Positions 2,849 to 26,887 of a stretch of DNA of 51,091 nucleotides are shown piece by piece; position 1 is the first letter of the stretch; every line of letters starts with the position of its first letter. Location: assembly GCA_946539175.1 (NCBI GenBank), contig CAMNHH010000001.1, positions 1-51,091 of the forward strand. Direction: 5' to 3'. This DNA comes from an uncultured Clostridia bacterium (lineage in GTDB: Bacteria; Bacillota; Clostridia; Oscillospirales; Oscillospiraceae). The notes under the pieces were generated by a model that saw only the letters and a program-made list of their open reading frames with translations, ran no database searches and had not been told where the DNA came from. The position numbers were made by a program, and so were the translations under genes.

Positions 2849-2956
2849 TATGATGTAATTCATAGAATTCACACAATCGCGGCTCCCTTGCTTTCGCGCA
2901 GAAACAGGGTTCAGAGCGAACGAAGCATTCTTTTCCCATGGAGGTGCATTTCAATC

Positions 2957-3634
2957 ATGCCATCCGCGGTCAAATCGGAAGAGTATGATCTCCTCCATTT
3001 TTCTGAGAGAAGGCCGAAAATTTGTACAGAAAAGCTGGGCAGAATAGCTCCGAAGCCTGTCTACGAGAAGGTAAAACGTATTTTTGACCTTTGCTTCTCG
3101 CTTTTGCTTTTGGTCGTTCTGATCCTTCCGATGCTGATCATCGCCGTTATGATCCGGCTGGATTCTCCCGGCAATCCGATCTATCGGCAAACGCGCCTTG
3201 GCAAGAACCAGAAGCCGTTTACGATCTACAAATTCCGAACCATGCACCTCCTGGCTGAACAGGATGGTCCGCGCTGGGCAAAGCCCAACGACAGCAGAAG
3301 TACGAGACTTGGCCGGGCACTGCGGCATGCTCACCTGGATGAGCTTCCCCAGTTGATCAACATAATAGCCGGGCAGATGAGCTTTGTGGGACCAAGACCG
3401 GAGCGCCCCGAGTTTTATGACGTCTTCGATACGTATATCGACGGATTCCGCCAGCGTATGCTGGTGACGCCGGGACTCACCGGGCTGGCGCAGGTTCACG
3501 GCGGTTATGAACTGCTTCCGGAGGAAAAAATCATCTATGATTTGGAATACATCAAAAACAGATCGTTCAGTCAGGATCTGCACTGTATTTTCCTGACCTT
3601 TGGACTTTTGATCACACATAAAGGAGCAAGATAG
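2957..3634 (+). CDS. Undecaprenyl-phosphate sugar-phosphate transferase (small monotopic PGT, bacterial sugar transferase family)
   Basis: ORF 2888..3634 trimmed to ATG 2957 after GGAGGTG. Motifs KRIFDL, one TM helix, PGNPIYRQTRLGKNQKPFTIYKFRTM, DELPQL, MSFVGPRPERPEF. Confidence 0.9.
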   Translation: MPSAVKSEEYDLLHFSERRPKICTEKLGRIAPKPVYEKVKRIFDLCFSLLLLVVLILPMLIIAVMIRLDSPGNPIYRQTRLGKNQKPFTIYKFRTMHLLAEQDGPRWAKPNDSRSTRLGRALRHAHLDELPQLINIIAGQMSFVGPRPERPEFYDVFDTYIDGFRQRMLVTPGLTGLAQVHGGYELLPEEKIIYDLEYIKNRSFSQDLHCIFLTFGLLITHKGAR

Positions 3635-4484: not shown

Positions 4485-5357
4485 ATGGGCGGATTCATCC
4501 CAGACGAAAAGCTCCTGGCCCATCAGCGGGTGATGCTGGAGCTGCTGCGGCAGGCGGACGCGATCTGCCGTGCCCATAAAATTCCTTACGTTCTGTTCGC
4601 CGGGACCATGCTGGGCGCGGTCCGGCACCGGGGCTTTATTCCTTGGGACGACGATCTGGATCTGTTGTTTTTGCGGGAGGACTACGATCGTTTCCTCGCC
4701 GCTGCGGAAACGGAGCTGGACCCGGAGAAGTATTATCTGCAGAGGGAATTCAGTCCCCATTGGCCCATGCAAAGCTCCAAGCTGCGGAGAAATGATACCG
4801 CCTGCTTTGAGAAATATTATCCCCGGGACCCGGAAACCCACATGGGGATCTACATCGATCTGTTCCCCTGTGATAATCTGTCCGACAGCCCATTGATCGC
4901 GCGTCTTCAATTTCTGGCCTCCAAGATCGTGATCGCAAAGGCTCTGGACGCAAGAGGCTATTTGACCCGCAGCCCCGCCAAAAAGATCTTTCTTGCCGTT
5001 TCCCGCCTGATTCCCGGCAAGCCCCTGGTCCGCTTTGTGCAGCTGCGGAGCCGGACCGGTACAAGCTGCGTTCACGTTTTTTTTGGCGGCGCAAAGCGTT
5101 ACGGCAAGAGCGTGTTTCCCCGCTCCTGGCTGGAGCAGCGGACAGAGCTGCCCTTTGAGGGTGGGAGCTATCCTGTTTCCGCGCACTATGAGGCTTTCCT
5201 CCGGCTGCTGTACGGTAATTATCAGGAGATACCCGACGCGAACGCACGGGCGCAGAAGAATCACGCGTTTTTTGTGGATCCCGCCCATTCCTACCGGGCG
5301 TATCCAAATATCTATGACGGAGTCAAATTTGACGTGCTGACAAAGAGTATTCGCTGA
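4485..5357 (+). CDS. LicD-family phosphotransferase (copy 1)
   Basis: ORF 4149..5357 trimmed to ATG 4485, 1 nt after the GT2 stop. Motif FAGTMLGAVRHRGFIPWDDDLDL. Confidence 0.9.
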   Translation: MGGFIPDEKLLAHQRVMLELLRQADAICRAHKIPYVLFAGTMLGAVRHRGFIPWDDDLDLLFLREDYDRFLAAAETELDPEKYYLQREFSPHWPMQSSKLRRNDTACFEKYYPRDPETHMGIYIDLFPCDNLSDSPLIARLQFLASKIVIAKALDARGYLTRSPAKKIFLAVSRLIPGKPLVRFVQLRSRTGTSCVHVFFGGAKRYGKSVFPRSWLEQRTELPFEGGSYPVSAHYEAFLRLLYGNYQEIPDANARAQKNHAFFVDPAHSYRAYPNIYDGVKFDVLTKSIR

Positions 5358-5374: not shown

Positions 5375-5815
5375 ATGCGAAACAAGAAACTGCTCGTCGC
5401 GGTCTGTGGAATCGTACTGGCGCTGTTTCTGGGCTGTGGAAAAAACAGCCCGCAGCCAAGCCTGAGTCCAAGCCAGGATGATCGGGCGAATCACGCAATC
5501 AAAACTGCCTGCGGCGATCTGTACTTCCCGGAGGAATGGAACGACGCGGTCGCCGTCCGGGAACAGACCACCGAATTCGGCAGCAGCGTGGTGTTTGAAA
5601 CGGAGCTGGAGGGTGAAAAAATTATTCTTTTCACCTTGAACATAGGCGGGGGAGAAGGCGATGAGATCGGAAAGCTGACCGATCAAAACGGTCAGGTCCG
5701 CAGCGTCCGGATGGTGATCAGTGAGCTGCACCCGGAGGGTGTTGACGAGCAGAGCGCTAATCGCCTGTTTGCCATGCAGGAGGATATCAATTATCTGATC
5801 GATCATTTGAAATGA
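5375..5815 (+). CDS. Small lipoprotein, unknown function
   Basis: Signal peptide with lipobox LFLGC (MRNKKLLVAVCGIVLALFLGCGKN). AGGAGG upstream. TTG 5369 is an alternative start. Confidence 0.75.
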   Translation: MRNKKLLVAVCGIVLALFLGCGKNSPQPSLSPSQDDRANHAIKTACGDLYFPEEWNDAVAVREQTTEFGSSVVFETELEGEKIILFTLNIGGGEGDEIGKLTDQNGQVRSVRMVISELHPEGVDEQSANRLFAMQEDINYLIDHLK

Positions 5816-5863
5816 TTTAGGAGTATTTACAGTCCCATGTCACGAGGAAGGAGCGTAAATGCA

Positions 5864-8800
5864 ATGAGGAACATCCGATTCAGAAGAATTCTCGCAATTC
5901 TGCTGGTACTGTGCCTGTCTTTGGGCTACGGATCCCCCCTGGCCAGCGCCGCGGATCCGGCAGAAGAGAACAACGCATCCGCGCTTGAAGCGTTTCTTGA
6001 GAAGTTGGTCAGCCTGGAGCAGTACGCGGCGGATTACGCGGCGGCAAACCCGGACTGCGGCAGCGACGCCTTTGAACTGGTACTGAATTACTGCAGAACC
6101 GCCAAGGAGGATTATACCTCCAGCAATTGGTCCAGTCTCGCAGGTGAGGAAAACGAAGGCTTCCGGGACTACGTCGCTCAGCAGGACGAGGAAAATGGGA
6201 CCAGCGTAGGGGAGATCAAGACCTACTCCGCCACCGGAAAGGACTTTATTCCCGTGGCCAACGGGAACAAAATTGACCTGTTCCATATCTTCGGCACCAT
6301 GAATATCAGCTATTACTGGGGCAGCCGATATCCGGAGCTCTCCGCCCGTCCTTACGCCGATCTGGGCGGCTGGGCCGGAGATCTGGTGGATCTGCTGACC
6401 AAGTGTACGGACCTTTCCGGTACGGAAGACGAGATGATCCGGGAAGTCTATTGGAACCGCTTTGCCAACGACCTCGGGCCTGGGTCCTTTGACATCGACG
6501 ACGTCTACGGGGACTTTGACGCCTATTACTTCATGCAGACCGCCGGGGCCGGTCAGGGCTCTCTGAGCCAGATCATGCGGGAGTATTATACCCCTGAGCT
6601 TTCCATGAAGGATCGGGCAGTCTTCTTTACGGAGCATCGCTTCTCCGGGAATCTCAGCCGGGAAGCGCTGCGGGACGCGGTGAAGAGCGCCTATTCCGGC
6701 AATATCCTGCTGGCGGCCCTGGAAAGCAACGAGGGGCTGGAGAATGTGGACGCCCAACGGGAAGCCTGCGTGTACGCCTTTGCCGATTACCTGTACATGC
6801 TGGTCAACGGTCCGGCGTTTGAGACGGACGAGGCCGCGCTCAACGCGGGTCAGACCCTGGAGGAGACCCCTGTCAGCGGCAGCGCGGCGAGCCTTTACGG
6901 CGATCCGGTGGAAGGCAGCTTCAGCTGGAAGCAGCCGCAGACGGTCGTGGAGCAGAGTGGATACTATACTGCGGTTTTCACCCCTGCAGACAGCTTCCAC
7001 TTCGGCGAAACAGAGCTCTCCGTGCCTGTGATCGTAGACGGACAGCCCATTGACGAGCCGGATCCCGATCCCGACCCGGACCCAGAGCCGAATCCCGATC
7101 CCGAACCGGAGCCGGATCCCGTCCCGGATAACAGCTATTTCTCCATCTTCTATAATAATACTTCCGTCCTGGCGCCGGGCGTCCAGCAGAGAATCCTGCA
7201 TACCCGCACCAGAGACAACAAGCAGATGGTGATCTACGCCGCTACCATCGACGTCTCCCGGCAGGACGTAGCCCTGCAGGCCAATTACAACGAAAACGAT
7301 CCGACCACCATCCCTACGCTTTCTCCGGTATCTGATCAGATGAAGGCGGCCCAGGCCAAGCACACGGATCCCGCCGACCCGGAGCATTACGTGGAGAATT
7401 ATAACGTGGTGTTCGGCTCCAACGCGGACTTCTTCACCATGGCCAACGGCAAGCCCACCAGCGCCTTTGTGATGGAGGGCGTCGTCTACTCGGACGCCGC
7501 CACCAGCGGATCTGGCAGCAGCAACTACTTCTTCGCGATTCTGAAGGACGGCACCCCGATCATCAGCCGAAACAGCACCTGGAACACTTACCGCGACAAC
7601 TGCCAGGAGGCGGTTGGCGGCGGCGCGCTTCTGGTGGAAAACGGCGAGACCAAGGTTTCCTCTTCTTCGAATTATTACAACAGCCGGGCGCCTCGTACCT
7701 GCATCGGCATCACCGCGGACAACAAGGTCGTGGTCATGTGTATCGACGGCCGCCAGGAGCCCTGGTCCTGCGGCGCTTCCTCCCAGGAAATGGCGGCAGC
7801 CATGATATCTCTGGGCTGCGTCAAGGCCATGAACCTGGACGGCGGCGGCTCCACCACCTTCGTCTCCAAGCCGGAGGGAGAGGACGAGCTTCGGGTCATC
7901 AACAGGCCCTCTGACGGATATGAGCGCCGGGTCTCCACCAGCTTGATGGTGGTCTCTACCGCGCCGAATTCCAATGTTTTGGATCACGTCTCCCTGCAGC
8001 CGGAAAACGAATATCTGATGCCGGGCGCAAGTGTTTCCGTGTCTGAGATCGGCGTTAACGCGGCCGGCGGCTCTGCCGAGCTTCCGGCGGATCTTCAGAT
8101 CGTATTGGACAAGCCTGACTTTGGCAGCTTCCAGGACGGCTGCTTCACCGCAGGCAGCGAGACCGGGGACGTGGTCCTCAGCGCGATCAGCGGCGATGCC
8201 GTTTTGGGCTCTGTGACGCTGCACGTTGTGATCCCGGATGCCCTGGCCTTTGATACCAACGAGGTTTCCGCGATCTACGGACAGACTGTTGAGCTGCCTC
8301 TGGTGGGGTATTACAACGGAAACAAGATCGCAATGAATTTTGCTTCCGATCTGCTCATCTATGGCTTGATGAATCCGAACGCGGGCTCCATCACCGCGGC
8401 GGTGCTGACGGCGGCAGACGAATCCTGCGGCGTCCGGTCTACGGACATCGGCGCCGCTCTTGCGGCGGACAACTCCATCTACGCCCGGACCACGCTGTAT
8501 TTGTATCACGAGAACGAGGCGGTGTTCGATTTTAACCACGCCACCGCCGGAAGCCGGAAGCTTGCCTGGAACCGGGTCGTTTCCAATTCCGAGATGACCA
8601 GGGATGAAAATGGTACTCTGGATGTTTACAATCTCGTGGAGCCCGGTGTCCCCATGGAGATTTCCTATACCTTCGCCCTTGATATGAACGACCTGGAGAT
8701 CCCGGACAACATCGCCGAGGCTCTGCCTGTCGTGGCATCGTTCCTGGGCGTTGACGCATCTGAGCTTGGTGCCTGGCAGCTGCTGCTGGCACTGGCGGAA

Positions 8801-10600
8801 CGGGTCAGCCCGTTGACGACTGTCACGGTCAAGGTCTTCGTAGACCCCAGACTGGATCTGGATATCAGCGATATGCAGATCAACTGCGATTATTTTGAGC
8901 TGACCGATAAGGAATTCGACTCTGAAAGCTCTACGCTCACGCTGAAAGCCCACTGGATCAAGGTCTACGGCCCGATCCCGGCGGCCACCGCGAATCCACT
9001 GTGCATCGTTTCCGGTCTCAAGGCCCACGTAAAGCCCGGCGCCCAGTGGGATGCGAACGACCGCCTCACCATTACGAACAGCGGTGAAATCACCTATGAG
9101 GTGGGCGTCCGCAGCTCCCAGGCCTACAGTCTGGCCAGCGGCGCGCTGGGGAAGCAGTACGGTCTGTACCCCTATGATAATACCGCGAATCTGGAAGGCG
9201 ATAAGGGCGCCATGTTCGGCGGCAAGCACACTGAGTTTTCCGACAGCTTCATCCTCGACAGCACGGACTATGAGGGCTGGGTTACCACCGAAGACGGCAC
9301 GGTATTCTATTACGTCAACAATAAGAAGCTGACCGGATTGCAGAAGCTGCCCACGCCGGAAGGGGACAAGCAGCTATATTACGTCTTTGCCGAAAATGGC
9401 GTACTGCTGCGGAAATACACCGGCAAACTGGAGCTGGAGGACGGGCTGCACTACGTGGTGCTGGGCCAGGAGGTCACCCGTTGGTATGAGCTGGACGACG
9501 GGATCCACTACTTCGATCCCGCGACCGGCGTTTCCGTTACCGGTACGCAGACCATTGACGGCTTTACCTATCTCTTTGAGGATTACGTCCTTGTCCGAGG
9601 TGAGTTCCGCCAGTTGGATACCGGCGCCTGGCGTTATCGCTGGGCCGGTCAGTGGTATGCCAAGGGCTGGTTTGTTGTGGAAGGCAAGAAATACTTTGCC
9701 ATTCGCGGCGGCAATCTGCACACCGGCATCCAGAACGTGGAAAAGTTCGGTGAATCCGGCAATGAATCCGTCCGCTTCCATCTCTTTGACGATCACGGAG
9801 TCTGGCAGGAGAATGCCAACGGTCTGTATCTGAATCTTGACGGCAAGACTTACCTGGCGGAGAACGGCTTTATGGTCCAGTATCCCGGACTTGTTCAGAT
9901 CGACGGGGATTATTACTACTTCACTTCCAAGAATTACATGGTACAGGGTACGGATTACTGGGTCAGCAAGACCAACGGTCTGATGCCCTCGGCCCGATAC
10001 AGTTTCGCGGAGGACGGAAAAATGATTCTGCACACGGAGCCGGATCCCGAGCCTACCGAACCTTCTGAGCCCACGGAGCCGGATCCCACGGAACCGGATC
10101 CCACGGAGCCGGAACCTGAAGTTAAGAACGGCATCTACGCCGAGGACGGCAGCCTGTATTACTACAAGAACGGCGCCCGGTACTACGCCGGCCTGATCAT
10201 CATCGACGGAGATTATTACTACGTCCGCACCGGCGGTGAGGTAGTCCACGGCAAGCGCTACACCGCTTCCAAGACCAACGGTCTGCTGCCCATCAAGCAG
10301 TATCTTTTCGCCGACGACGGCAAGCTGATTCTGGATGAGACGCCTCCCACGCCTACGGAGCCCACGGAGCCGGATCCTGACGTAAAGAACGGCATCTACG
10401 CCGAGGACGGCAGCCTGTATTATTACAAGAACGGCGCCCGGTACTACGCGGGACTGATCATCATCGACGGAGATTATTACTACGTGCGTACCGGCGGCGA
10501 GGTGGTCCATGGCAAGCGCTACACTGTTTCCAAAAATAACGGCCTTCTGCCCATCAAGCAGTATCTCTTCGCCGACGACGGCAAGCTGATCCTGCCGTAA
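5864..10600 (+). CDS. Giant secreted protein (1578 aa) with a phosphodiester glycosidase (NAGPA-like) domain and cell-wall-binding repeats
   Basis: SPase-I signal peptide (ILAILLVLCLSLGYGSPLASA/AD). About 390 aa of unknown N-terminal domain, then a PD/PE linker. NAGPA-like block (GSNADFF, ALLVENGE, PRTCIGITADNKVVVMCIDGRQ, MNLDGGGSTTF). One Ig-like (Big_2-type) segment, about 340 aa unknown, then C-terminal YG/choline-binding-type repeats (DGSLYYYKNG, IDGDYYYV). ATG 5864 follows GGAAGGAG; ATG 5837 is an alternative start. Confidence 0.9.
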   Translation: MRNIRFRRILAILLVLCLSLGYGSPLASAADPAEENNASALEAFLEKLVSLEQYAADYAAANPDCGSDAFELVLNYCRTAKEDYTSSNWSSLAGEENEGFRDYVAQQDEENGTSVGEIKTYSATGKDFIPVANGNKIDLFHIFGTMNISYYWGSRYPELSARPYADLGGWAGDLVDLLTKCTDLSGTEDEMIREVYWNRFANDLGPGSFDIDDVYGDFDAYYFMQTAGAGQGSLSQIMREYYTPELSMKDRAVFFTEHRFSGNLSREALRDAVKSAYSGNILLAALESNEGLENVDAQREACVYAFADYLYMLVNGPAFETDEAALNAGQTLEETPVSGSAASLYGDPVEGSFSWKQPQTVVEQSGYYTAVFTPADSFHFGETELSVPVIVDGQPIDEPDPDPDPDPEPNPDPEPEPDPVPDNSYFSIFYNNTSVLAPGVQQRILHTRTRDNKQMVIYAATIDVSRQDVALQANYNENDPTTIPTLSPVSDQMKAAQAKHTDPADPEHYVENYNVVFGSNADFFTMANGKPTSAFVMEGVVYSDAATSGSGSSNYFFAILKDGTPIISRNSTWNTYRDNCQEAVGGGALLVENGETKVSSSSNYYNSRAPRTCIGITADNKVVVMCIDGRQEPWSCGASSQEMAAAMISLGCVKAMNLDGGGSTTFVSKPEGEDELRVINRPSDGYERRVSTSLMVVSTAPNSNVLDHVSLQPENEYLMPGASVSVSEIGVNAAGGSAELPADLQIVLDKPDFGSFQDGCFTAGSETGDVVLSAISGDAVLGSVTLHVVIPDALAFDTNEVSAIYGQTVELPLVGYYNGNKIAMNFASDLLIYGLMNPNAGSITAAVLTAADESCGVRSTDIGAALAADNSIYARTTLYLYHENEAVFDFNHATAGSRKLAWNRVVSNSEMTRDENGTLDVYNLVEPGVPMEISYTFALDMNDLEIPDNIAEALPVVASFLGVDASELGAWQLLLALAERVSPLTTVTVKVFVDPRLDLDISDMQINCDYFELTDKEFDSESSTLTLKAHWIKVYGPIPAATANPLCIVSGLKAHVKPGAQWDANDRLTITNSGEITYEVGVRSSQAYSLASGALGKQYGLYPYDNTANLEGDKGAMFGGKHTEFSDSFILDSTDYEGWVTTEDGTVFYYVNNKKLTGLQKLPTPEGDKQLYYVFAENGVLLRKYTGKLELEDGLHYVVLGQEVTRWYELDDGIHYFDPATGVSVTGTQTIDGFTYLFEDYVLVRGEFRQLDTGAWRYRWAGQWYAKGWFVVEGKKYFAIRGGNLHTGIQNVEKFGESGNESVRFHLFDDHGVWQENANGLYLNLDGKTYLAENGFMVQYPGLVQIDGDYYYFTSKNYMVQGTDYWVSKTNGLMPSARYSFAEDGKMILHTEPDPEPTEPSEPTEPDPTEPDPTEPEPEVKNGIYAEDGSLYYYKNGARYYAGLIIIDGDYYYVRTGGEVVHGKRYTASKTNGLLPIKQYLFADDGKLILDETPPTPTEPTEPDPDVKNGIYAEDGSLYYYKNGARYYAGLIIIDGDYYYVRTGGEVVHGKRYTVSKNNGLLPIKQYLFADDGKLILP
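7055..7129 (+). repeat. Low-complexity Pro-Asp/Pro-Glu linker coding repeat
   Basis: A run of (GAY/GAR CCN) codons encoding EPDPDPDPDPEPNPDPEPEPDPVPD. Similar PT/PE linkers occur at 10034-10120 and 10336-10381. Confidence 0.85.
10121..10597 (+). repeat. 261-bp in-frame tandem duplication (87-aa wall-binding module plus linker)
   Basis: The unit starting GTTAAGAACGGCATCTACGCCGAGGACGGCAGCCTG at 10121 recurs at 10382. About 216 nt align, with roughly 18 substitutions counted by eye. Confidence 0.9.
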
Positions 10601-10612
10601 AACCTCACGATA

Positions 10613-10638
10613 CCCGCCCGCGTTCAGACGCGGGCGGG
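10613..10638 (+). terminator. GC-rich hairpin after giant gene 1 (no U-tract)
   Basis: CCCGCCCGCG-TTCAGA-CGCGGGCGGG, a perfect 10-bp stem 13 nt after the stop. No T run follows, so it may be only a partial terminator or a stabiliser. Confidence 0.4.
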
Positions 10639-10689
10639 AGAGAACCCGGCTGCGGATACCCGTTCGGGGAAGGAGCGTGACAGCTTATC

Positions 10690-11370
10690 ATGGTATTGCA
10701 ATTTGTGAAGGAACACGTCCTTTGGTGGATCCTTTTGTTTGCGGCTGTCTTTACCTTCTATTGGCTGATGCAGTTCCGCAAACGCCTGCGGATGTCCTGG
10801 CAGGCGGCTCTGCCGCTCAGCCTCCTTCACGTCGTATTCGGCGTCGCCTGCGTTCGGGTCTTTGCCAGGCTTGAGGGAGCTGATGCGGGGGCCATGAGTA
10901 TTTTCGGCGCGGTATTCTTCATGCCGATCGGTTATTATCTTGGCGCAAAGCTCTTCAAACGGCAAACTGCGGAGATATTTGATATTTTCGCTGTACCGAT
11001 GATTTTCACACTGCTGTGTGCTCGGGTCAACTGCCTGTTTTCGGGCTGCTGTCTTGGTTTGCCAATCGGAAGCACCGGCCTGCGCTGGCCGACCCGGGAG
11101 GCGGAAATGCTGTTTTATCTGACGTTTCTGCTGGTTGAAGCGCCGAAGGTGCGAAAGGGAAAAACACGAGGCGAGGTCTATCCGCTTTATATGTTTGCAT
11201 ACGGCTTATTCCGATTTGTGGTAGAGTTCTTGCGTGTTTCCACTTCCACAAATCATCCGTTTCATCTGTCCCACGCGTGGGCAATTCTTTCCCTCGTCGT
11301 AGGACTGGCGATAGTCGTGTTCATAACAAAACAGGCCAAGCGCCTCCAACGCAAGGCCAGGAAAAACTGA
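10690..11370 (+). CDS. Prolipoprotein diacylglyceryl transferase (Lgt) family protein, short paralogue
   Basis: Polytopic membrane protein. Lgt-like blocks CARVNCLFSGCCLG, WPTREAEMLFY and YPLYMFAYGLFRFVVEFLR. At 226 aa it is shorter than canonical Lgt. Confidence 0.72.
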   Translation: MVLQFVKEHVLWWILLFAAVFTFYWLMQFRKRLRMSWQAALPLSLLHVVFGVACVRVFARLEGADAGAMSIFGAVFFMPIGYYLGAKLFKRQTAEIFDIFAVPMIFTLLCARVNCLFSGCCLGLPIGSTGLRWPTREAEMLFYLTFLLVEAPKVRKGKTRGEVYPLYMFAYGLFRFVVEFLRVSTSTNHPFHLSHAWAILSLVVGLAIVVFITKQAKRLQRKARKN

Positions 11371-11385
11371 AGAGGAGGAATCTAT

Positions 11386-14300
11386 ATGGTAAACAACCTG
11401 TCAAAGCGTTTCCTCGCGTGTCTGATGGCGATTTTGATCGTCGTCACGCTGCTACCCGGCACCGTTCTGGCTGCCAGCGTCAATACCGGCGTCTCCGGTC
11501 TGACGGCTGAAAGCAGCGGCAGCGCAAGCTGGAACAGCTCCGGCGGAACGGTCACCGGATCGGTGGAAGCAAGCAAAAGTTCTGGCTGCGCCGGAGATTC
11601 GTATACGCCCCAAACCGGCACGCTGACTTTCACCAACAGTTCGGGCGCTACCGCTCTTTTGAGCTTTGATTACGCCCTTGGCTTGAGCGGTGGCAGCGCC
11701 ACTGTAGATGGGTCTGCCGTCTCTGCTGGATCCGGTTTTGCCAAGAAGCTGGCGGCCGGGGACAATGTTGCGATTTCGATCACGTCTCCCAGTGGCGAGG
11801 GAACCACCAGCATTGTATTGAGTAATCTGGCTCTGACCCCCGAACAGAGCATTACTCTGACCTGCAAGGCTCCCAGTCACGGCAGCTACACTGTGGACGG
11901 CACGGCAATCACTGCGGATACCGCTCTCTCACGGTTGACCACCGACAGTGTTAACCTGGCTGCAACCCCTGCCAGTGGCTATAAGTTTTTGGGCTGGTAC
12001 AGTGAGACTGAGGAAATCTACTTCTCCATAACAGCTTCTCTGACCACCAGCTTCACCGGTAATAAGACAATCTACCCGGTATTTGTTTCCAGCAGCATCC
12101 CCGTGTTCCAGGTAGGCTCCAAGCTCTTTACGGATCTGAACGAGGCCATCAGCTATTCCCAGAGCAGCGGCATTGCAAAGATTGTGCTGGTTTCCAACGG
12201 CACCCTGCCTGCCGGGACCTACACCATTCCCAGCGGGAAGACGCTGTTGATTCCCTTCGACGACGCTTTTACTGTCTTTACCTCCACACCGGAGGTGGTC
12301 TACGGAGCGCACGAAAATCCCTCCGCTTTCCGGACACTGACCATGGCCAATGGCGCGAAGATTGTGGTGTCCAACGGCGCTGTACTCTCCGTGCCCTCCA
12401 AGCTCTCCGCCACAGGGACCGGCAGCGGCTCCTGGAACGGAACGCCAACCGGTAAGCACGGCAGAATCAGCATGAATGCCGGCAGCTCCATCGACGTACA
12501 GTCCGGCGGCAAGCTCTATGCCTACGGCTACATTTCCGGTTCCGGCAACGTCTACGCCCGGTCCGGCTCCGAGATCTGGGAGTGCTTCCAGATCCGCTGC
12601 TGGCGAGGCGGTACGGCCACCTCCGGCATGGCAGATAACACGCAGAAGGTTTTCCCCCTGAACCAGTATTACGTTCAGAATGTGGAAGCCCCTCTGACCT
12701 TCTATCCCGGCGCAACCGAGAAGGTATATACCGCTGTGAATATGAGCAGCAAGGCCTTTGCGGCCTCTGCTACCTTCATTGGTTCCGGAGGTATGTTCAC
12801 AATCAATGACGGCAGTGTCACCAAGCGCTTCACCGGTGCTTCTGATCGGTTGGAGCTGAACGTGGATGGCAATTTTTCTATCACACCCATGTCCTTGAAT
12901 ATTACCGGACTTCCTCTGATTGGTGACCTAAATCTGAATACTGCTGACTATGTTCTGCCCATCAACAGCAACATCACCATCAATGTGGATACCGGAAACA
13001 CTATAATCAGCCAGGATGTCGCTTTCTTCCCCGGCACAGAGATGAATATTGCCAATGGCGCCACAGTAGAGCTTACCAGTGGCCACAAGGCATATATCTA
13101 TGACCAGGATCAGTGGGGCGCATACGCAGCAGCCAGTCAACAACTGGTGCCCGTTGGGTATTCTACTGTAAACGGTACTACGGCCAAGCGGACAGTTAAT
13201 AGCCTTGTTGATGCAAAGATTGATATCAACGGAACTTTTGCTGCCTATGGTTCTGCGTATACCACCGAGAGTGGTGCTCAGATTATCAGTTCACAGGGTA
13301 CGGGTAAGTACATTTTGCAAAGCGCCCCTGGAACTGAGAGTAACACTTACCAAGCGACACAGGGTGGATCAGAAGGTAAGGAAATCACCTATGTCAGTAT
13401 CCCCATAACCGCTGCCAGGCTTCAGAACGCCGATGGGAGCTACTTTGAAACCGCGGGCAAGGCCGCCGGTACGGAAATTCCCTATTACGAGGGAGAGTGG
13501 GGCAAGGTGCCTCCCGCCGTGCAGAACGGCTATTATCTCGTGGGCAGCAGAAATGACTGGAATACCGACGCGCCGGACCAGAACCTGATGTTCCAGCTGA
13601 ATCAAGATTCCAACGAAAACGAGTACCAGCTGACCCTGGATCTGACCGAAACTGAAGAATTCAAGGTCGTAGGGTATGAGGACGGTGTTGTGACCTGGTA
13701 TCCCGGCGGCAGCAACTACGTCGTGGACGCCGCCCACGCCGGGGCAGGGAAGACCGTCTTCTTCCGGCCTGACGCCAACGGCGGCAGCGACTGGCACGAG
13801 CAGACCATCTTCGTGGCCAAAAACCGGTATACCATTACCTGGAAGAACGAGGACGGCTCCGTCATCGACACCACCACCGTAGAACACGGTGAAATCCCCA
13901 CCCATGCGGATCCTGTAAAGGAAAGCAGTGCGGAATTTCATTACAGCTTTGCCGGTTGGACGCCCGCTCCCGTGGCTGCCGTGGCCGACACGGAGTACAC
14001 CGCCACCTTTACCTCCGCCACGAGAACCTATCTGATCCGCTTCCTCAACGATGATGGAACCGTGCTGCAGAGTGACCAGGTGGCCTACGGCGTAACGCCT
14101 GCCTATACTGGCGAGACGCCTCAGAAGGCCTCCACTGCGCAGTACAGCTACGAATTCACCGGCTGGAGTCCCGAGGTTGCAGAAGTAACCGGCGATGCCG
14201 ACTACACAGCCACATATCGGGAGATTCTGAACACTTACGAAATCACCTTCAACAACTGGGACGGCACTGAGTTGTTCAGTTTCGAATTCCCCTACGACAC

Positions 14301-17300
14301 CATACCCACCTACGACGGCCCGACGCCTGAGAAGCCCGACGACGAGCGCTACAGCTACACCTTCGCCGGATGGGATCCCGAGCTCGCAGCAGTCACCGGT
14401 CCCGCAGTCTATACCGCCAAGTTCACCGCCGCCCCGCTGATCTCCGACGGTTATTATCTGGTGGGCAGCTTTAACGACTGGAAGGCGGAGAACGCCTACA
14501 AGTTCCAGCATCAGGATGGTAAGTACCTGTTGGAGAACATCGCGCTGGCAGTAAACGACGAAATGAAGGTTGTAGGGTTCCGGGATGGAGCCCCGTTCAA
14601 ATGGTTCCCCGATGGCTCCGGCAACAACTACGTGCTTCCTGAGGGCAGAGAGGGCCTGAAGACCGTCTTCTTCAGCCCTGAATATCTGGATGAGTACGCC
14701 GATTGCAACGGTTTCCTCTTTATCCCGCTGAACACCTTCACCGTCACCTGGAACGACGATCAGGGCAATGAGCTGAAGAAGGACGAGGACGTTCCCTATG
14801 GCACCATGCCCAGCTTTGGGGATCAGGATCCTGTGAAGGAGGCCACTGCCCAGTACACCTACACCTTCAGCGGCTGGTCCCCCGAGCTGGCTCCCGTCAC
14901 CAGCGACGTAACCTACACCGCCACCTTTGGGTCTCACGTCAGAAGCTATACCATTACCTTCCAGAATGAGGACGGCAGCTTCCTATGGGCAGGAGACTTT
15001 GAGTATGGGTCCATTCCTGAATACCATGGCGAGATCCCCGTCAAACAGGGCGACGCGGAGCATTCCTACACCTTCGCCGGTTGGGAGCCCAACGTCACCG
15101 AGGTTACCGGCCCTGCTACCTACAAAGCAGTCTACACCGAAGCCACCAACACCTACACCGTCACCTGGGTCAACTACAACGGCGACGTTCTGGAAAAAGA
15201 CGAGGATGTACCCTACGGCGCGACTCCCAGCTATGACGGCGATGAGCCCGAAAAGCCTGCGGACGCCGAGTTCACCTACAGCTTCATCGGCTGGACTCCG
15301 GAAGTTTCTACCGTCAAAGGCAACGTGACCTACATTGCTACTTTCGAGCCTCACACCAGAAGCTATACCATTACCTTCCAGAATGAGGACAGCAGCTTCC
15401 TATGGGCAGGAGACTTTGAGTATGGGTCCATTCCTGAATACCAGGGCGAGATCCCCGTCAAACAGGGCGACGCGGAGCATTCCTACACCTTCGCCGGCTG
15501 GACGCCTGCGATTGCTGCGGTCACCGGAGAGGCCACCTACACCGCCGTCTTTGCGGAGCACACCAACAGCTATCTCATCATCTTCAACAACTGGGATGGC
15601 ACCGAGCTGTACCGCACCACGGTAGAATACGGTCAGATTCCTGTGTACGCGGGTGACACTCCCGTGAAGCAGGGCAGCGCCCAGTACAGCTACACCTTCA
15701 AGGATTGGGATCCCACGCTGAATCCCGTCACCGGCGAAGCTGTCTATACCGCCACCTTCACCGAATCCGTGAACAGCTACCCCATCACCTGGGTCGTGGG
15801 CGAGGAAAGGGAAACTGTGGAGCTTGAGTATGGCACCATGCCCACCCATGCGGATCCCGACAAGGAGTCTGACGCCCAGTACAGCTACTCCTTCGTGGGT
15901 TGGGAGCCCGAGATTGTCCCGGTCACTGGCCCCGCCACCTACACCGCCGTTTTCAACAAAACTGTGAACAAGTACACCGTTACCTGGAGCATCAACGGCA
16001 ACGAGACCACCGAGGAATACGAGTACGGCGACACTCCGTCCTATAAGGGAGAGACCCCTGTCAAGGAAGGCAATGCCCAGTATTCCTACGAGTTCACCGG
16101 CTGGGATCCGGACATCCAGGAGGTAACCGGCAATATTACCTATACCGCTCAGTTCCGGGAATCCGTGAACAAGTACACCGTCACCTGGAGCATCAACGGC
16201 GAAGAGACCACAGAGGAATACGAGTTCGGCGCTGTGCCTAGCCATGAAAACCCGGCGAACTACGAGGACGAGAACGGCAGTTACAAATTCATCGGTTGGG
16301 ATCCTGAAATTGAGAGTGTCACCGGCGATGTCACTTACACCGCAAAGTTCCAGGCTTTCCTCCGCAACGGTTTCTACCTGATTGGTCTGCGCGGCTGGAA
16401 TTACGAGTCTTTGTCCGCAGATGACCGATTCGTCGTGAACCCCAATGCGGAGAACGAGTACATGATCAATGAGGTTCTGCTCAGCGAGGGGGATACCCTA
16501 AAAGTCGCCCGGGTGGAGTATGGCGAGATTACAGGCTGGTTCCCCGATGGAATGGACAATCATTACGTCGTTGACGCTGCTCACGCCGGATCGCATACCG
16601 TATTCTTCAATCCCGACGGTAAGAATGAATGGCAAGATTTTGGCGGTTACATCTTTATCGATACGTCTTTCTTCGTGGTGACCTGGAGCGTGGATGGCGT
16701 CGAAACTTACGAGACCTACGTCTACGGTCAGATGCCTGCGCATGATGTCCCCGTCAAGGCGGAAACGATGCTGGAAAGCTACGAATTTGCAGGCTGGGAG
16801 CCCGAGCTGACTGTCGTGACCGGCCCGGCGACCTATACCGCTCAATTCACTGCCGTTCCCAAGGCCGGCTGGATCGCCTGGGAAGGCCAGCGGTACTATA
16901 TCGCGGATGGTGCGCCTGTCAGGGGCGTGTATGAGATCGAGGACGAGTTCTACATCTTTGATCTGGAAACCGGCGCTTTCCGCAGCGACGCCAACGGCGT
17001 CACCGACGTCGGGGAGGACACTTATCTGGCTGAAAATGGCAAGGTCGTCAAGAATCCCGGCCTGGTCCGGATTCCCGAGACAGAAGAGTATTTCTACTTT
17101 GGCGAGGACAACAAGGCTCTGAAGAACCAGCGTACCTGGATTGATCGGACCAACGACCTGCTGCCTGTGTGGGCCTACACCTTTACCGAGACCGGAGCCA
17201 TCGAGCACGTGGACGTCACTTGGGAGGGGCTGCAGGAAGACGGCTATACCTACATCGACGGTATTCGCGTTTACCTGGGTCTGGTACAGGAAGCCGACGG

Positions 17301-18222
17301 CAGCTACCACTACTACAATTCAACTGGCCTGCATATCGTTGGCCGCAGATACTGGATCAGCAAGACCAACCCGGAAACCGTCAAAGATCCCAACGGCAAT
17401 CCCTTCCCCGAGGGCAATTACGAGTTTGACGAGCAGGGCCGCATGATTCTGCCCGGCGACCCGCAGGCCAAGAACGGCATCGTTGCCGAGGACGGCAGCC
17501 TGTATTATTACGTGGATAACGTCCGCAGCTATGCCGGTCTGATCCTGATTGACGGCGATTACTACTACGTCCGCTACGGCGGCGAGGTGGTCCACGGCAC
17601 CGATTACTGGGTCACCAAGAACAACGGTCTGCTGCCCTCTGCCCGCTATCAGTTTGCGGACGACGGCAAGCTCATTCTGGAGCAGCCCAAGAACGGCATC
17701 GTGGCCGAGGACGGCAGCCTGTTCTACTATGTGGACGGTGCCAGGAACTATGCCGGACTGATTGAGATTGACGGTGACTACTATTACGTCCGTCAGACCG
17801 GCGAGCTGGTCCACGGCACCGATTACTGGGTCACCAAGCATAACGACCTGGTTCCCGCAGGCCGCTACAGCTTCGATGAAGACGGCAAGATGATCCTCAC
17901 CGGCACCCCCCTGGATCCGGAGCCGCAGCCTGAGGTGAAGAACGGCGTTTACGAAGAGGACGGCGTCAAGTACTATTACGAAAACGGTGTAAAAAAGTAT
18001 GCCGGTCTGATCGTCCTGGAGGACCCCGCGAACCCCGGCAGCTACGCGTACTTCTACGTCACCAGTTCCTGCCAGCTCAAGACCAGCGGCGCGGAGGGCA
18101 GCTTCGTGAAGTACACCGCAAGCTATACCAACGGATTGCTTCCGGCCGCAAGGTATCAGTTTGACTACCTTGGCAGGATGTATGATCTGGATGGCAATCT
18201 GCTGACGCCTGCCGCACCCTGA
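11386..18222 (+). CDS. Giant secreted protein (2278 aa) with InlB-B-type repeats and cell-wall-binding repeats
   Basis: RBS GAGGAGGA. SPase-I signal peptide (ILIVVTLLPGTVLA/AS). About 700-aa G/S/T/N-rich N-terminal region, possibly beta-helical. Three GYYLVGSxNDW modules, 12 roughly 70-aa repeats ending Y-x-F-x-GW, and C-terminal choline-binding-type repeats. Confidence 0.9.
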   Translation: MVNNLSKRFLACLMAILIVVTLLPGTVLAASVNTGVSGLTAESSGSASWNSSGGTVTGSVEASKSSGCAGDSYTPQTGTLTFTNSSGATALLSFDYALGLSGGSATVDGSAVSAGSGFAKKLAAGDNVAISITSPSGEGTTSIVLSNLALTPEQSITLTCKAPSHGSYTVDGTAITADTALSRLTTDSVNLAATPASGYKFLGWYSETEEIYFSITASLTTSFTGNKTIYPVFVSSSIPVFQVGSKLFTDLNEAISYSQSSGIAKIVLVSNGTLPAGTYTIPSGKTLLIPFDDAFTVFTSTPEVVYGAHENPSAFRTLTMANGAKIVVSNGAVLSVPSKLSATGTGSGSWNGTPTGKHGRISMNAGSSIDVQSGGKLYAYGYISGSGNVYARSGSEIWECFQIRCWRGGTATSGMADNTQKVFPLNQYYVQNVEAPLTFYPGATEKVYTAVNMSSKAFAASATFIGSGGMFTINDGSVTKRFTGASDRLELNVDGNFSITPMSLNITGLPLIGDLNLNTADYVLPINSNITINVDTGNTIISQDVAFFPGTEMNIANGATVELTSGHKAYIYDQDQWGAYAAASQQLVPVGYSTVNGTTAKRTVNSLVDAKIDINGTFAAYGSAYTTESGAQIISSQGTGKYILQSAPGTESNTYQATQGGSEGKEITYVSIPITAARLQNADGSYFETAGKAAGTEIPYYEGEWGKVPPAVQNGYYLVGSRNDWNTDAPDQNLMFQLNQDSNENEYQLTLDLTETEEFKVVGYEDGVVTWYPGGSNYVVDAAHAGAGKTVFFRPDANGGSDWHEQTIFVAKNRYTITWKNEDGSVIDTTTVEHGEIPTHADPVKESSAEFHYSFAGWTPAPVAAVADTEYTATFTSATRTYLIRFLNDDGTVLQSDQVAYGVTPAYTGETPQKASTAQYSYEFTGWSPEVAEVTGDADYTATYREILNTYEITFNNWDGTELFSFEFPYDTIPTYDGPTPEKPDDERYSYTFAGWDPELAAVTGPAVYTAKFTAAPLISDGYYLVGSFNDWKAENAYKFQHQDGKYLLENIALAVNDEMKVVGFRDGAPFKWFPDGSGNNYVLPEGREGLKTVFFSPEYLDEYADCNGFLFIPLNTFTVTWNDDQGNELKKDEDVPYGTMPSFGDQDPVKEATAQYTYTFSGWSPELAPVTSDVTYTATFGSHVRSYTITFQNEDGSFLWAGDFEYGSIPEYHGEIPVKQGDAEHSYTFAGWEPNVTEVTGPATYKAVYTEATNTYTVTWVNYNGDVLEKDEDVPYGATPSYDGDEPEKPADAEFTYSFIGWTPEVSTVKGNVTYIATFEPHTRSYTITFQNEDSSFLWAGDFEYGSIPEYQGEIPVKQGDAEHSYTFAGWTPAIAAVTGEATYTAVFAEHTNSYLIIFNNWDGTELYRTTVEYGQIPVYAGDTPVKQGSAQYSYTFKDWDPTLNPVTGEAVYTATFTESVNSYPITWVVGEERETVELEYGTMPTHADPDKESDAQYSYSFVGWEPEIVPVTGPATYTAVFNKTVNKYTVTWSINGNETTEEYEYGDTPSYKGETPVKEGNAQYSYEFTGWDPDIQEVTGNITYTAQFRESVNKYTVTWSINGEETTEEYEFGAVPSHENPANYEDENGSYKFIGWDPEIESVTGDVTYTAKFQAFLRNGFYLIGLRGWNYESLSADDRFVVNPNAENEYMINEVLLSEGDTLKVARVEYGEITGWFPDGMDNHYVVDAAHAGSHTVFFNPDGKNEWQDFGGYIFIDTSFFVVTWSVDGVETYETYVYGQMPAHDVPVKAETMLESYEFAGWEPELTVVTGPATYTAQFTAVPKAGWIAWEGQRYYIADGAPVRGVYEIEDEFYIFDLETGAFRSDANGVTDVGEDTYLAENGKVVKNPGLVRIPETEEYFYFGEDNKALKNQRTWIDRTNDLLPVWAYTFTETGAIEHVDVTWEGLQEDGYTYIDGIRVYLGLVQEADGSYHYYNSTGLHIVGRRYWISKTNPETVKDPNGNPFPEGNYEFDEQGRMILPGDPQAKNGIVAEDGSLYYYVDNVRSYAGLILIDGDYYYVRYGGEVVHGTDYWVTKNNGLLPSARYQFADDGKLILEQPKNGIVAEDGSLFYYVDGARNYAGLIEIDGDYYYVRQTGELVHGTDYWVTKHNDLVPAGRYSFDEDGKMILTGTPLDPEPQPEVKNGVYEEDGVKYYYENGVKKYAGLIVLEDPANPGSYAYFYVTSSCQLKTSGAEGSFVKYTASYTNGLLPAARYQFDYLGRMYDLDGNLLTPAAP
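13828..16860 (+). repeat. Array of 12 coding repeats (~200-210 bp each, InlB B-repeat / Listeria-Bacteroides repeat-like) interrupted by two beta-sandwich-like modules
   Basis: Each unit reads Y-T-(I/V)-T-(W/F) ... G ... P ... Y-(S/T)-(Y/F)-x-F-x-G-W-x-P-E ... T-G ... Y-T-A-x-F. Repeat 5 (14941-15080) and repeat 7 (15358-15497) differ at only 2 of 140 nt. Confidence 0.85.
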
Positions 18223-18261
18223 TTCCGGCGCGGGCTTTGTCCCGCTGAAGCAATGAACAAC

Positions 18262-18295
18262 AGCAGGGATACGGGTTTCGACCCGTATCCCTGCT
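18262..18295 (+). terminator. Perfect 15-bp hairpin after giant gene 2 (no U-tract)
   Basis: AGCAGGGATACGGGT-TTCG-ACCCGTATCCCTGCT. Flanked by a small hairpin at 18229-18246 and a 13-bp hairpin at 18307-18335. Confidence 0.5.
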
Positions 18296-18370
18296 CAAAA
18301 ACACTGATAGAAGGGGAGAGCGTCTCCCTTTCTATGAGTGCTTTTCACCTTGGTCGAAAGGAGACGAGCC

Positions 18371-19594
18371 ATGCGCGCAGCCTTTGTCAACGCGGTATGC
18401 GGCAGCGGCAGCACCGGTAAGATTGTAACCGGTCTGCTGCGTTCTTTGCGTGGGGCAGGGGACGATGGCCGCGTTTTTTTCGGCATCGGCAAAGCCCAGG
18501 ACATTGCCTTGGAGGACACGTGCCGCTTTGGCAGTACCGCGGATTATTACCTGCACAACGCCGTCTCCAGGCTGACGGATCACGCCGGTTTTTATTCCAC
18601 CGCCGCCACCCGTCGGATGATCAAAGCCATAGAAGCCTATCAGCCGGATCTGATCCATTTGCACAATCTGCACGGTTACTATCTCAACGTGGAAGAGCTG
18701 TTCCATTTCCTGTCCGGCTGCGGAAAACCGGTGCTTTGGACTCTGCACGACTGTTGGGCCTTCACCGGGCATTGCACGCACTTCAGCGCGGCAGGTTGTG
18801 AGCAGTGGAAAACCGGATGCCGCAGCTGTTCCCAGCTTTCACGTTATCCAAAATGCCTGCTGAGGGGAGACGTGGAGCGGAACTATGCCCGGAAGCGCAG
18901 CCTGTTCACCTCCGTGCCGGGCCTTACGCTGATCACGCCCTCTGTTTGGCTGGCCGGCATCGTTCGGCAGTCCTTTCTGGGAAAATTGGAGATCATCCCC
19001 ATTCCAAACGGGATCGACACGGAGCGGTTTTGCCCCGTCAAGAGCGACGTCAAGGAGCGATTGGGATTAACGGGCAAAAAGATGGCATTGGGCGTCGCTT
19101 CGGTCTGGAATGAACGAAAGGGTCTGCAGGATCTTCTGCGCTTGTCTGAACTGCTGCCGGATGATTGGCGTCTGGTTCTGGTAGGACTTACAAAGCAACA
19201 GCAGGCCTTGTTCCCGAAGCTGGTCGTCACCATGGAGCGGACCTCCTCCCAGGAGGCGCTTGCCCGGCTTTATTCCGCCGCTGACGTTTTCATCAACCCC
19301 AGCTATGAGGAAACCATGGGCATGACCACGGCGGAGGCCCTGGCCTGCGGTACGCCTGCTGTGGTCTATGATCGGACCGCGGTGCCGGAGCTGGTAGATG
19401 AAAGCTGCGGCGCAATCGTACCGGCAGGCGACGTGAAGGCCCTTTGCGCGGCGATCACCTCCATTTCATTGGATCGTAAAGCCGCACGCGCCAGAGGCCT
19501 GCGATATGCCCAATCCAAGCAGAACGAAGCACATCTTCGGCTCTACAGGCGTTTGGTACAGGCAAGTAAAAATGGATTGGAGGCTCCGCTATGA
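18371..19594 (+). CDS. Glycosyltransferase family 4 (GT-B)
   Basis: ORF 18338..19594 trimmed to ATG 18371 after AAGGAGA. Cys-rich HDCWAFTGHC...C..W..GC..C block, then a C-terminal GT1/GT4 core (SYEETMGMTTAEALACGTPAVV). Confidence 0.85.
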   Translation: MRAAFVNAVCGSGSTGKIVTGLLRSLRGAGDDGRVFFGIGKAQDIALEDTCRFGSTADYYLHNAVSRLTDHAGFYSTAATRRMIKAIEAYQPDLIHLHNLHGYYLNVEELFHFLSGCGKPVLWTLHDCWAFTGHCTHFSAAGCEQWKTGCRSCSQLSRYPKCLLRGDVERNYARKRSLFTSVPGLTLITPSVWLAGIVRQSFLGKLEIIPIPNGIDTERFCPVKSDVKERLGLTGKKMALGVASVWNERKGLQDLLRLSELLPDDWRLVLVGLTKQQQALFPKLVVTMERTSSQEALARLYSAADVFINPSYEETMGMTTAEALACGTPAVVYDRTAVPELVDESCGAIVPAGDVKALCAAITSISLDRKAARARGLRYAQSKQNEAHLRLYRRLVQASKNGLEAPL

Positions 19595-23104: not shown

Positions 23105-23109
23105 ATCCG

Positions 23110-23943
23110 ATGAATGATTTGACCCTGCTCATTTTTACCTGTGAAAAGTTTTCCGATCTTTGGGATCCGCATGTGAAGCTCCTGGAGGAAAACTGGCCGG
23201 ATCGCGGCATGGACAGCTATCTTGTGACCGACGCTCCTCACGATACGTGGTACGATGGGGTTTCTGTCCTGGCCGCAGGACCGGATGCCTCCTTCACAGC
23301 CCGCGTTCGCTGTGCCTGCGAGACAGTACGAACCAAGTATGTGTTCGTGACGCTGGATGATTATTTTTTGCTCCGGCCCGTTGACAGCGGCAGGATCCGG
23401 CAGCTGGTCTCCATCATGGAAGAGGAGCGTCTGGATTATCTTCGTCTCTACGATCGCCCGAAGCGGGCTTCCGCCGCGCCGCTGGCCTCGGATCCTACGC
23501 TGCGGCATATTGTGAACGATACCCGCTACAGCGTGAACCTTTACGCCGGGATCTGGCGCAGGGAATTTTTGCTGCGGACGGCAGTGGGAGAAAGGAATCC
23601 TTGGAGCTATGAGGCCTCACTATCACGGGCTGCCACAGCTTTGAAGGCAAACTGCGCCGTAGACGAGGCCAGGGATTTTGTTACCTTGGACGTGGTGCGG
23701 AAGGGAAAGATTCTGAACAGAGCCAATCGCTATCTGAAGAAGCACGATCTGTACCACGGAGACCGACCGGTACAGTCCCGGTGGTATGAGTTTGCTCTGG
23801 CGGTACGGACCTTTGGTGTACGCCACATGCCACGCCCGGCGGTGGAACTGGCCCGGCGCTTCATGATGAAGCGGGGGCGCCATTACTACAGCCAGGAGCA
23901 GTTTGAATATCCAATACCGGAGCAAACGGAGTCTAAGGAATGA
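23110..23943 (+). CDS. Hypothetical protein in the glycan operon (possible GT-A-like enzyme)
   Basis: Soluble 277-aa ORF with an FVTLDDYF acidic motif after a beta-alpha-like N-terminus. No family recognised. GTG 23101 is an alternative start. Confidence 0.55.
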   Translation: MNDLTLLIFTCEKFSDLWDPHVKLLEENWPDRGMDSYLVTDAPHDTWYDGVSVLAAGPDASFTARVRCACETVRTKYVFVTLDDYFLLRPVDSGRIRQLVSIMEEERLDYLRLYDRPKRASAAPLASDPTLRHIVNDTRYSVNLYAGIWRREFLLRTAVGERNPWSYEASLSRAATALKANCAVDEARDFVTLDVVRKGKILNRANRYLKKHDLYHGDRPVQSRWYEFALAVRTFGVRHMPRPAVELARRFMMKRGRHYYSQEQFEYPIPEQTESKE

Positions 23944-25575: not shown

Positions 25576-25576
25576 T

Positions 25577-26872: not shown

Positions 26873-26887
26873 TTAAGAGAGGTTACT

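Follow-up and report, generated by a model that had tools for sequence, protein, structure and literature searches.

A predicted two-hydrolase surface protein and the closest described systems

Large proteins of spore-forming Bacillota in which a prok-TelC lipocone and an NAGPA domain form a 'two-enzyme core', joined to immunoglobulin-like (Ig) domains and cell-wall-binding repeats, were described computationally by Burroughs, Nicastro & Aravind (eLife 2025, PMC12419801). Their supplement lists GT-A/GT-B glycosyltransferases, a flippase, Wzy, lgt (12 loci) and 'Fukutin', which is LicD (22 loci), nearby, and the authors read the system as inter-bacterial conflict, flagging LicD as unexplained there. 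The stretch analysed here (the window; 51,091 nt of contig CAMNHH010000001.1 from an uncultured Oscillospiraceae bacterium) contains a gene for such a protein at 5864-10600 on the forward strand, and this protein, referred to below as the giant, is a member of the same 'NAGPA-fused prok-TelC' family, with NAGPA as the second of its two hydrolase domains. The architecture (PF27189 and PF09992) and the neighbourhood are the same as in the described proteins, with no structural difference; as both are already listed in PMC12419801, the family and its genomic context are known computationally, and the window protein is a new member. In contrast to the published interpretation, the operon embedding of the giant and the LicD coupling of TelC-less variants observed here favour the producer's own polymer. 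Our tentative reading, to which we give a probability of about 0.4, is that the giant cuts the polymer of its own locus at glycosyl-(pyro)phosphate bonds, in self-directed release, shedding or trimming.

Four other described systems resemble parts of this arrangement. Vertebrate NAGPA and Bacteroides ovatus DUF2233 (structures 6PKU and 3OHG) have the same catalytic domain, with DGGGS, R-T and Arg ligands, whereas the 1578-amino-acid (aa) surface protein described here carries it as one of several modules, fused to a second hydrolase. That predicted hydrolase has a lipocone core homologous to that of TelC, the lipid II phosphatase toxin of Streptococcus intermedius (H / GWxGD / DDxxxDxD), and both are found outside the membrane; TelC, however, is delivered by type VII secretion, carries LXG and is neutralised by TipC, whereas the giant has a Sec signal, carries the domain at its N-terminus and has no LXG or TipC. 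TelC cleaves undecaprenyl pyrophosphate head groups (PMC12419801). In pneumococcus, as would be the case here, a LicD writer (LicD1/LicD2) is combined with a secreted eraser on choline-binding-type repeats: the choline-binding-repeat protein Pce (CbpE) strips teichoic acids of the phosphocholine that LicD installs (PMC4929436). This eraser is a phosphodiesterase with a metallo-beta-lactamase fold, whereas NAGPA breaks a sugar-1-phosphate on its glycosidic side. With this precedent, the suggestion in a sequence-only reading of the window that such a maturation step is undocumented was too strong, and only the uncovering of a sugar would be new. The WceF/AmsF-type trimming enzymes of Wzy-dependent exopolysaccharide (EPS) loci are likewise locus-encoded extracellular enzymes acting on their own polymer, and among them WceF, which is secreted, trims polymer and has its gene in a Wzy-type EPS locus (PMC7949094), is a precedent for the reading favoured here, although, unlike the giant, it is a tailspike-fold glycosidase of Gram-negatives without phosphodiester chemistry.

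Translation of the window gave an open reading frame (ORF) at 5837-10600 on the forward strand with 1587 codons and no internal stop. The protein probably begins at M10 (5864); this start gives 1578 aa, the same length as database entry P0003, and is supported by the Shine-Dalgarno-like AGGAAGGAG 10 nt upstream of 5864. No lipobox was found in the signal peptide region, and no LXG or type VII secretion (T7SS) domain was found in the giant (sequence; Pfam and NCBIfam scans). The domains are arranged in the following order, as identified from sequence, AlphaFold2 (AF2) models with their predicted local distance difference test (pLDDT) scores, and Foldseek or hhalign comparisons.

5864-10600, forward strand: gene for the giant secreted protein, 1578 aa from M10, frame open from 5837
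5864-5950, forward strand: Sec signal peptide, MRNIRFRRILAILLVLCLSLGYGSPLASA followed by ADP, read from the sequence
5975-6808, forward strand: predicted TelC-like lipocone phosphoesterase domain (Pfam PF27189 'YkzU'), aa 47-324 (AF2, hhalign)
6815-7036, forward strand: Ig-like beta-sandwich, aa 327-400 (AF2 model; Foldseek matches to S-layer and Ig domains)
7043-7132, forward strand: Pro/Asp/Glu-rich linker (sequence; low pLDDT at the model end)
7133-7972, forward strand: NAGPA-type phosphodiester glycosidase domain, aa 433-712, Pfam core 7400-7951
7838-7852, forward strand: catalytic DGGGS loop (D668-S672), D668 and G670 invariant, the others at least 90% conserved
7973-9256, forward strand: two Ig/Big_2-like domains and an adhesin-like beta-sandwich with a helical insert, aa 713-1140 (AF2, Foldseek)
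9257-10597, forward strand: predicted CROP / choline-binding-type carbohydrate-binding repeats, about 450 aa, including two tandem 87-aa modules

The NAGPA domain retains its catalytic residues

The assignment of 7133-7965 to an NAGPA-type glycosidase in the sequence-only reading was borne out by the hidden Markov model (HMM) check. Pfam PF09992 (NAGPA) matched aa 522-705, corresponding to window 7400-7951, with 136.4 bits (cut-off, 25 bits) and an E value of 1.5e-39 over profile positions 1-168 of 169, and a profile search of the whole genome returned the same match in the giant. At the sequence level, the flagged block is thereby confirmed, far beyond chance, as a genuine NAGPA domain, and the motifs that had been quoted for it are all present, at aa 435 (SIFYNNTSVLAPGV), 527 (GSNADFFTM), 619 (PRTCIGITADNKVVVMCIDGRQ) and 665 (MNLDGGGSTTF). 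In phmmer searches against the PDB, aa 437-706 aligned with the B. ovatus DUF2233 structure 3OHG (E 1.5e-17), and the vertebrate NAGPA entries 6PKU/6PKY were also matched (E 1e-9).

A cryo-EM study of human NAGPA (2026, PMC13474241) reported that the DGGGS loop is invariant and its Asp, D286, essential, that D286 hydrogen-bonds the C6 hydroxyl of the sugar in the pocket, and that T260 and R316 are the phosphate ligands. The corresponding loop in the giant, N666-L-D668-G-G-G-S672, is intact, and D668 is invariant across the 34 aligned relatives, so the catalytic residues have been kept rather than lost. By sequence alignment only, R620-T621 lines up with the SART of 6PKU, and R697, located after the DGGGS loop, is at least 90% conserved. 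From these intact catalytic residues the domain is predicted to be, most likely, functional as a phosphodiester glycosidase. The human residues that read the N-acetyl group are without conservation across the bacterial family, and because these positions vary, the sugar removed need not be GlcNAc. A plasmid search for lactococcal plasmid EpsL as an NAGPA example turned up none. The window's genome (G000) also contains a smaller second NAGPA paralogue on contig 57 (312-836, reverse strand; open frame of 506 aa, 62 bits).

A TelC-like second hydrolase is predicted at the N-terminus

The roughly 390 aa left unassigned ahead of the NAGPA domain concealed what is predicted to be a second, TelC-like hydrolase. 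The AF2 model of aa 47-324 is all-helical (pLDDT 92), and PF27189 'YkzU' and PF09992 are both present in all 107 large homologues. When the N-terminal profile of the family was compared by hhalign with an alignment of 22 canonical TelC cores from the supplement of PMC12419801, it matched canonical prok-TelC with 95% probability and E 3.5e-8, spanning H2-H4, while 30 column-shuffled controls gave at most 1.4% and the reversed control 0.5%. A single-sequence HMM was weak, with E 0.42 for the window protein, and matched 64 of 73 relatives versus 9 of 500 shuffles. The N-terminal region gave no match against the PDB in phmmer even at E 10, nor any match in the Pfam/NCBIfam profile scan, for which the model set was used without PF27189.

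The predicted active-site motifs, DLFHIF (H150), GGWAGD (D182) and DDVYGDFDA (D221/D222, D226, D228), match the TelC pattern of an H2 His, the Asp of GWxGD in H3 and an H4 Asp; the TelC-specific Asp six residues past the H4 Asp is also present (D228). H150, D182, D222 and D228 are all invariant or at least 90% conserved among relatives. The TelC-like domain would point to the lipid- or wall-linked end of a polymer, or to a toxin role.

The two regions described earlier as unassigned were correctly measured as lengths of unnamed sequence, but they do have identities: the first is the TelC-like domain followed by an Ig domain, and the second consists of two Ig domains and an adhesin-like sandwich. 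In this second region (aa 713-1140) the AF2 model had a pLDDT of 95.5, and Foldseek matched solely S-layer, adhesin and Ig arrays; a third enzyme was thus ruled out by the Ig and adhesin-like fold. The phmmer search of this middle region against the PDB gave no match even at E 10. The C-terminal repeats matched clostridial CROP / 'cell wall-binding repeat' PDB chains (E 7e-14 to 5e-3), whereas Choline_bind_3 scored 18 bits, below its cut-off of 27, and the glucan-binding repeat and PspA models were also sub-threshold. As to the giant having been called wall-docked, the repeats do resemble carbohydrate or wall binders, and docking itself is a reasonable supposition from these matches.

The giant lies within a Wzx/Wzy glycopolymer operon

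The window's Wzx/Wzy locus is located entirely on one strand with intergenic gaps of 0-115 nt or overlaps, and the giant lies inside this operon, encoded on the same strand as its neighbours and spaced from them by 17-115 nt. The locus begins with a priming hexose-1-phosphate transferase, a GT2 glycosyltransferase, LicD_A, a lipobox lipoprotein, the giant, a short Lgt paralogue and a second giant of adhesin type, and continues with a GT4 glycosyltransferase, a Wzy-like protein, more glycosyltransferases and acyltransferases, Wzx, LicD_B and Wzz/CpsD/CpsB. Both LicD genes are present, as the sequence-only reading had stated. The genes referred to below are as follows.

2888-3634, forward strand: priming polyprenyl-phosphate hexose-1-phosphate transferase, predicted to make the undecaprenyl pyrophosphate-sugar bond, well conserved among loci
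4485-5357, forward strand: LicD_A phosphotransferase (PF04991), of the clade accompanying NAGPA giants
5375-5815, forward strand: 146-aa lipoprotein, lipobox FLGC, recurrent directly upstream of giants
10690-11370, forward strand: short Lgt paralogue, kept after the giant in L008, L009 and G186
11386-18222, forward strand: second giant surface protein, InlB B-repeat adhesin type, with the same C-terminal repeats as the first giant
25577-26872, forward strand: Wzx flippase, with orthologues above 300 bits right after the giant in LicD-less loci
26888-27745, forward strand: LicD_B, the second LicD, not of the giant-linked clade

No LCP ligase was found within the window. The 146-aa lipoprotein, which could be an immunity or partner protein, showed no detectable similarity to any solved structure and no TipC-like match. 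It recurs directly upstream of TelC-bearing giants and is missing before both TelC-less giants examined.

For comparison, about 20 TelC-NAGPA loci were drawn from assemblies and metagenome-assembled genomes (MAGs) of Ruminococcus, Faecousia and Oscillospiraceae, an Olsenella MAG, and same-family and same-order genomes. EPS genes (priming transferase, glycosyltransferase, Wzx or CpsBCD) adjoin the giant on the same strand in 16-17 of these, and the giants are an integral part of a Wzx/Wzy glycopolymer locus family in gut and rumen Clostridia. Strong conservation among giant-bearing loci extends to the priming transferase and Wzx but not to the glycosyltransferases, which argues for a constant reducing end. 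Within the giants, conserved catalytic domains at the N-terminus are followed by variable C-terminal anchors (dockerin, SLH, Big_2, repeats), a layout that fits surface enzymes better than polymorphic toxins.

The closest relative (L003/L004, 5068-9920) is 66% identical overall, with 78% identity in the NAGPA domain of L003. Upstream of it are CotH kinase-like, Cthe_2159, VTC, DUF4956 and sugar-nucleotide genes in place of LicD and the lipoprotein. The four-gene cassette of lipoprotein, giant, Lgt paralogue and adhesin giant is repeated in L008 and L009. In L008 (9505-21365) the cassette lies within the EPS locus of an actinobacterial (Olsenella) MAG, which suggests that the whole module was transferred across phyla. 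In three further loci (L039, 5168-15265; L100, 8613-18146; L102, 314-10192), a single gene encodes the adhesin giant fused to the enzyme giant as one protein of more than 3100 aa, with the TelC-NAGPA unit beginning around aa 1450-1550. In the LicD-less loci L099, L100, L101 and L011, an orthologue of the window's Wzx (25577-26872; more than 300 bits) follows the giant immediately. A 2550-aa relative in L010 (10001-17653) has a purple-acid-phosphatase/Metallophos domain added to the TelC-NAGPA core, and its neighbours are Fic, methylase, ParAB and TnpV genes, with no EPS locus.

LicD_A accompanies the giant frequently but not obligatorily

Orthologues of LicD_A score 280-365 bits across loci, versus about 20-35 bits for the flanking glycosyltransferases. 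With LicD_A-type defined in the family survey as E below 1e-40, such genes were present in 3 of 151 same-family genomes, namely the window's genome, G121, in which the giant lies 6.5 kb downstream of LicD_A, and G138, in which a TelC-less NAGPA giant is on a different contig from LicD_A. Large NAGPA ORFs in five other same-family genomes were without a TelC domain and without LicD_A. Among 401 genomes of the order, TelC giants were found in 7 and LicD_A-type genes in 8, and the two occurred together in 4, each time in one operon (0.14 expected; Fisher p 2e-6, kinship uncorrected). An NAGPA-domain ORF shares the operon in six of the eight LicD_A genomes, and two of those giants, encoded directly downstream of LicD_A in G176 and G280, are TelC-less. 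As TelC-less NAGPA giants also follow LicD_A, LicD_A goes with NAGPA rather than with TelC. Of the remaining LicD_A-only genomes, G305 is cut by a contig end and G376 has only the lipoprotein and the adhesin giant.

The converse association is looser. While four of the seven genomes with TelC-NAGPA giants have LicD_A, three have none (G152, G344 and G426; 97-100% complete): there the giant lies beside a conserved Wzx, with no LicD_A-type gene in the genome and no LicD in the locus. In L003 no LicD was found within 10 kb upstream of the giant, and G476 carries sister paralogues of the giant, one with LicD and one without. Near-identical NAGPA domains occur in loci without LicD, the domain is equally conserved with or without LicD, and a LicD-specific NAGPA subclade sought on the NAGPA-domain tree was not found, both locus types being intermixed. 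The link between LicD_A and the giant is thus frequent but not obligatory. As the priming transferase and Wzx are strongly conserved too, LicD_A may do no more than occur often in a single family of loci.

Bacterial LicD enzymes are associated mostly with transfer of phosphocholine, glycerol-phosphate and ribitol-phosphate, and NAGPA would be unable to cleave such phospho-alcohol diesters because it breaks the anomeric C-O bond. Since yeast Mnn14, which has a PF04991 domain, can transfer mannose-1-phosphate (PMC9705852), a LicD making sugar-1-phosphate would be chemically possible. The lack of a CDP donor, considered as an argument for such a LicD, was dropped, as several cytidylyltransferases exist elsewhere in the genome; one lies among three further LicD genes on contig 4. 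The genome, which is only 75% complete, yielded no choline kinase. The contig 4 region (9000-27000; L106) is a second glycopolymer locus, in which one of the three LicD genes has an in-frame TAG, and it also encodes a cytidylyltransferase-oxidoreductase fusion, a class-V aminotransferase, a TupA-like ATP-grasp, Wzy and a MurJ-type flippase. Its product may be a decoration of the aminated phospho-alcohol or phosphonate kind, and the locus supplies a CDP/CMP donor.

Predicted action on the locus's own polymer and competing explanations

We infer the giant's substrates, its self-directed action and the biological outcome as follows. After export, the repeats would keep the giant on the cell surface, where NAGPA would break the sugar C1-O-P bond and the TelC-like domain the (pyro)phosphate ester next to it. 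That a TelC-like enzyme is fused to a glycosyl-phosphate glycosidase suggests a shared substrate region, and the shared target would be the reducing-end sugar-1-(pyro)phosphate, the sole bond type that would be open to both domains and present in every such locus; the constancy of the priming transferase and flippase and the independence of the giant from LicD point to the same target. Through this bond the chain would be attached to undecaprenyl phosphate or, once ligated, to peptidoglycan, and cleavage there would release, shed or trim chains. Where LicD_A is present, a LicD-made sugar-1-phosphate might be an extra target. In a more specific version, which we consider quite unlikely, the two domains would be a two-step release machine for Gram-positive Wzy polymers, in which TelC frees the chain from undecaprenol and NAGPA strips the pyrophosphate from the reducing sugar, with LicD_A caps as an optional second substrate; if true, this would account for the detachment of exopolysaccharides from their lipid carrier in the absence of an LCP ligase and would provide a source of free undecaprenol. 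If own-polymer processing does take place, the Gram-positive Wzx/Wzy pathway would gain a maturation or release step outside the cell, through a family that recurs in the capsule/EPS loci of abundant Clostridia of gut and rumen.

Several points weigh against cutting of the producer's own polymer. Foldseek of the N-terminal model against the PDB gave nothing below E 0.1, and TelC was absent from the top 50. The antibacterial toxicity of TelC is proven, and the adjacent conserved lipoprotein could be an immunity protein. A pocket burying O6 as in the human enzyme might be a misfit for a chain-substituted reducing-end sugar. One relative (P0101) sits in a mobile/defence-type region without EPS genes, TelC giants are patchily distributed (7 of 401 genomes of the order, about 2%), and a literature search found no experiment on any NAGPA-fused prok-TelC member.

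Some of these points are shared with the conflict interpretation of Burroughs et al. (2025), which we regard as rather unlikely for this locus. It would have TelC destroy the lipid II or wall-polymer carrier links of rivals while NAGPA removes their phosphodiester-linked sugars or detaches their wall polymers, with binding domains tracking the targets and the lipoprotein and Lgt paralogue acting as immunity. The homology to a known toxin with an intact predicted active site, the varied anchors, the published 'arms-race' diversity of binding domains, the small fast-evolving lipoprotein adjoining the giant, the patchy distribution and the mobile or defence context of P0101 are all consistent with it. 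It does not account, however, for a giant embedded in the middle of a biosynthetic operon, nor does it give a role to LicD, the glycosyltransferases, the flippase and Wzy, among which 'Fukutin' was flagged as unexplained by the authors themselves. Moreover, no delivery system, LXG domain or TipC-like match was found, the toxin-like domain is N-terminal and conserved rather than a variable C-terminal tip, and a 170-kDa wall-docked protein would have poor access to a rival's membrane. Were the giants toxins, they would be a Sec-delivered, wall-docked weapon hidden in capsule loci, and the own-polymer and toxin readings predict opposite outcomes.

The pairing of LicD_A and NAGPA as writer and eraser, proposed in the sequence-only reading, stands as regards an intact secreted NAGPA domain and its coupling to LicD_A, but not as an obligatory pairing, as LicD-less giants exist. 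According to this proposal, LicD_A would cap the repeat unit with a sugar-1-phosphate in the cytoplasm and the docked NAGPA would remove the sugar outside, leaving a phosphomonoester, a bacterial version of the GlcNAc-phosphotransferase / uncovering-enzyme logic. The rarity of LicD_A (8 of 401 genomes) set against its operon sharing with NAGPA ORFs, TelC-less giants included, the excess overlap with TelC giants (kinship uncorrected), its conservation far above that of the neighbouring glycosyltransferases, the existence of mannose-1-phosphate transferases in the LicD family and a human NAGPA pocket suited to a terminal sugar all speak for it. We nevertheless judge it unlikely: the presumed writer is lacking in three genomes with giants (G152, G344, G426), in the 10 kb upstream of the giant in the closest relative (L003) and beside one of two sister paralogues (G476), the products known for bacterial LicD enzymes are phospho-alcohols, the genome has cytidylyltransferases elsewhere, and the linkage may merely mirror a common locus family. 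Very unlikely, in our view, is that LicD_A installs a ligand such as phosphocholine for the repeats or the adhesin, or that the enzymes harvest phosphate or sugars from foreign phosphoglycans (teichoic acids of other microbes, dietary or host glycans). The choline-binding-type repeats common to both giants and the pneumococcal precedent of LicD with choline-binding proteins would suit the former, and added phosphoesterases, such as the Metallophos domain carried by P0101, the latter; yet LicD_A also lies beside giants with dockerin anchors, repeat-bearing giants exist without LicD_A, and no tie of the locus to nutrient uptake was seen.

Features beyond the EPS locus

The EPS locus ends at about 29952, and the region beyond it (window 29891-41014) resembles a mobile-element border. 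This region encodes a tandem-DUF1508 protein, two tyrosine integrases (31866-32978, forward strand; 40124-41014, reverse strand), a RadA-like ATPase, an Amidase_3 protein, a Mn-catalase and a CapD-like dehydratase (37448-39316, reverse strand).

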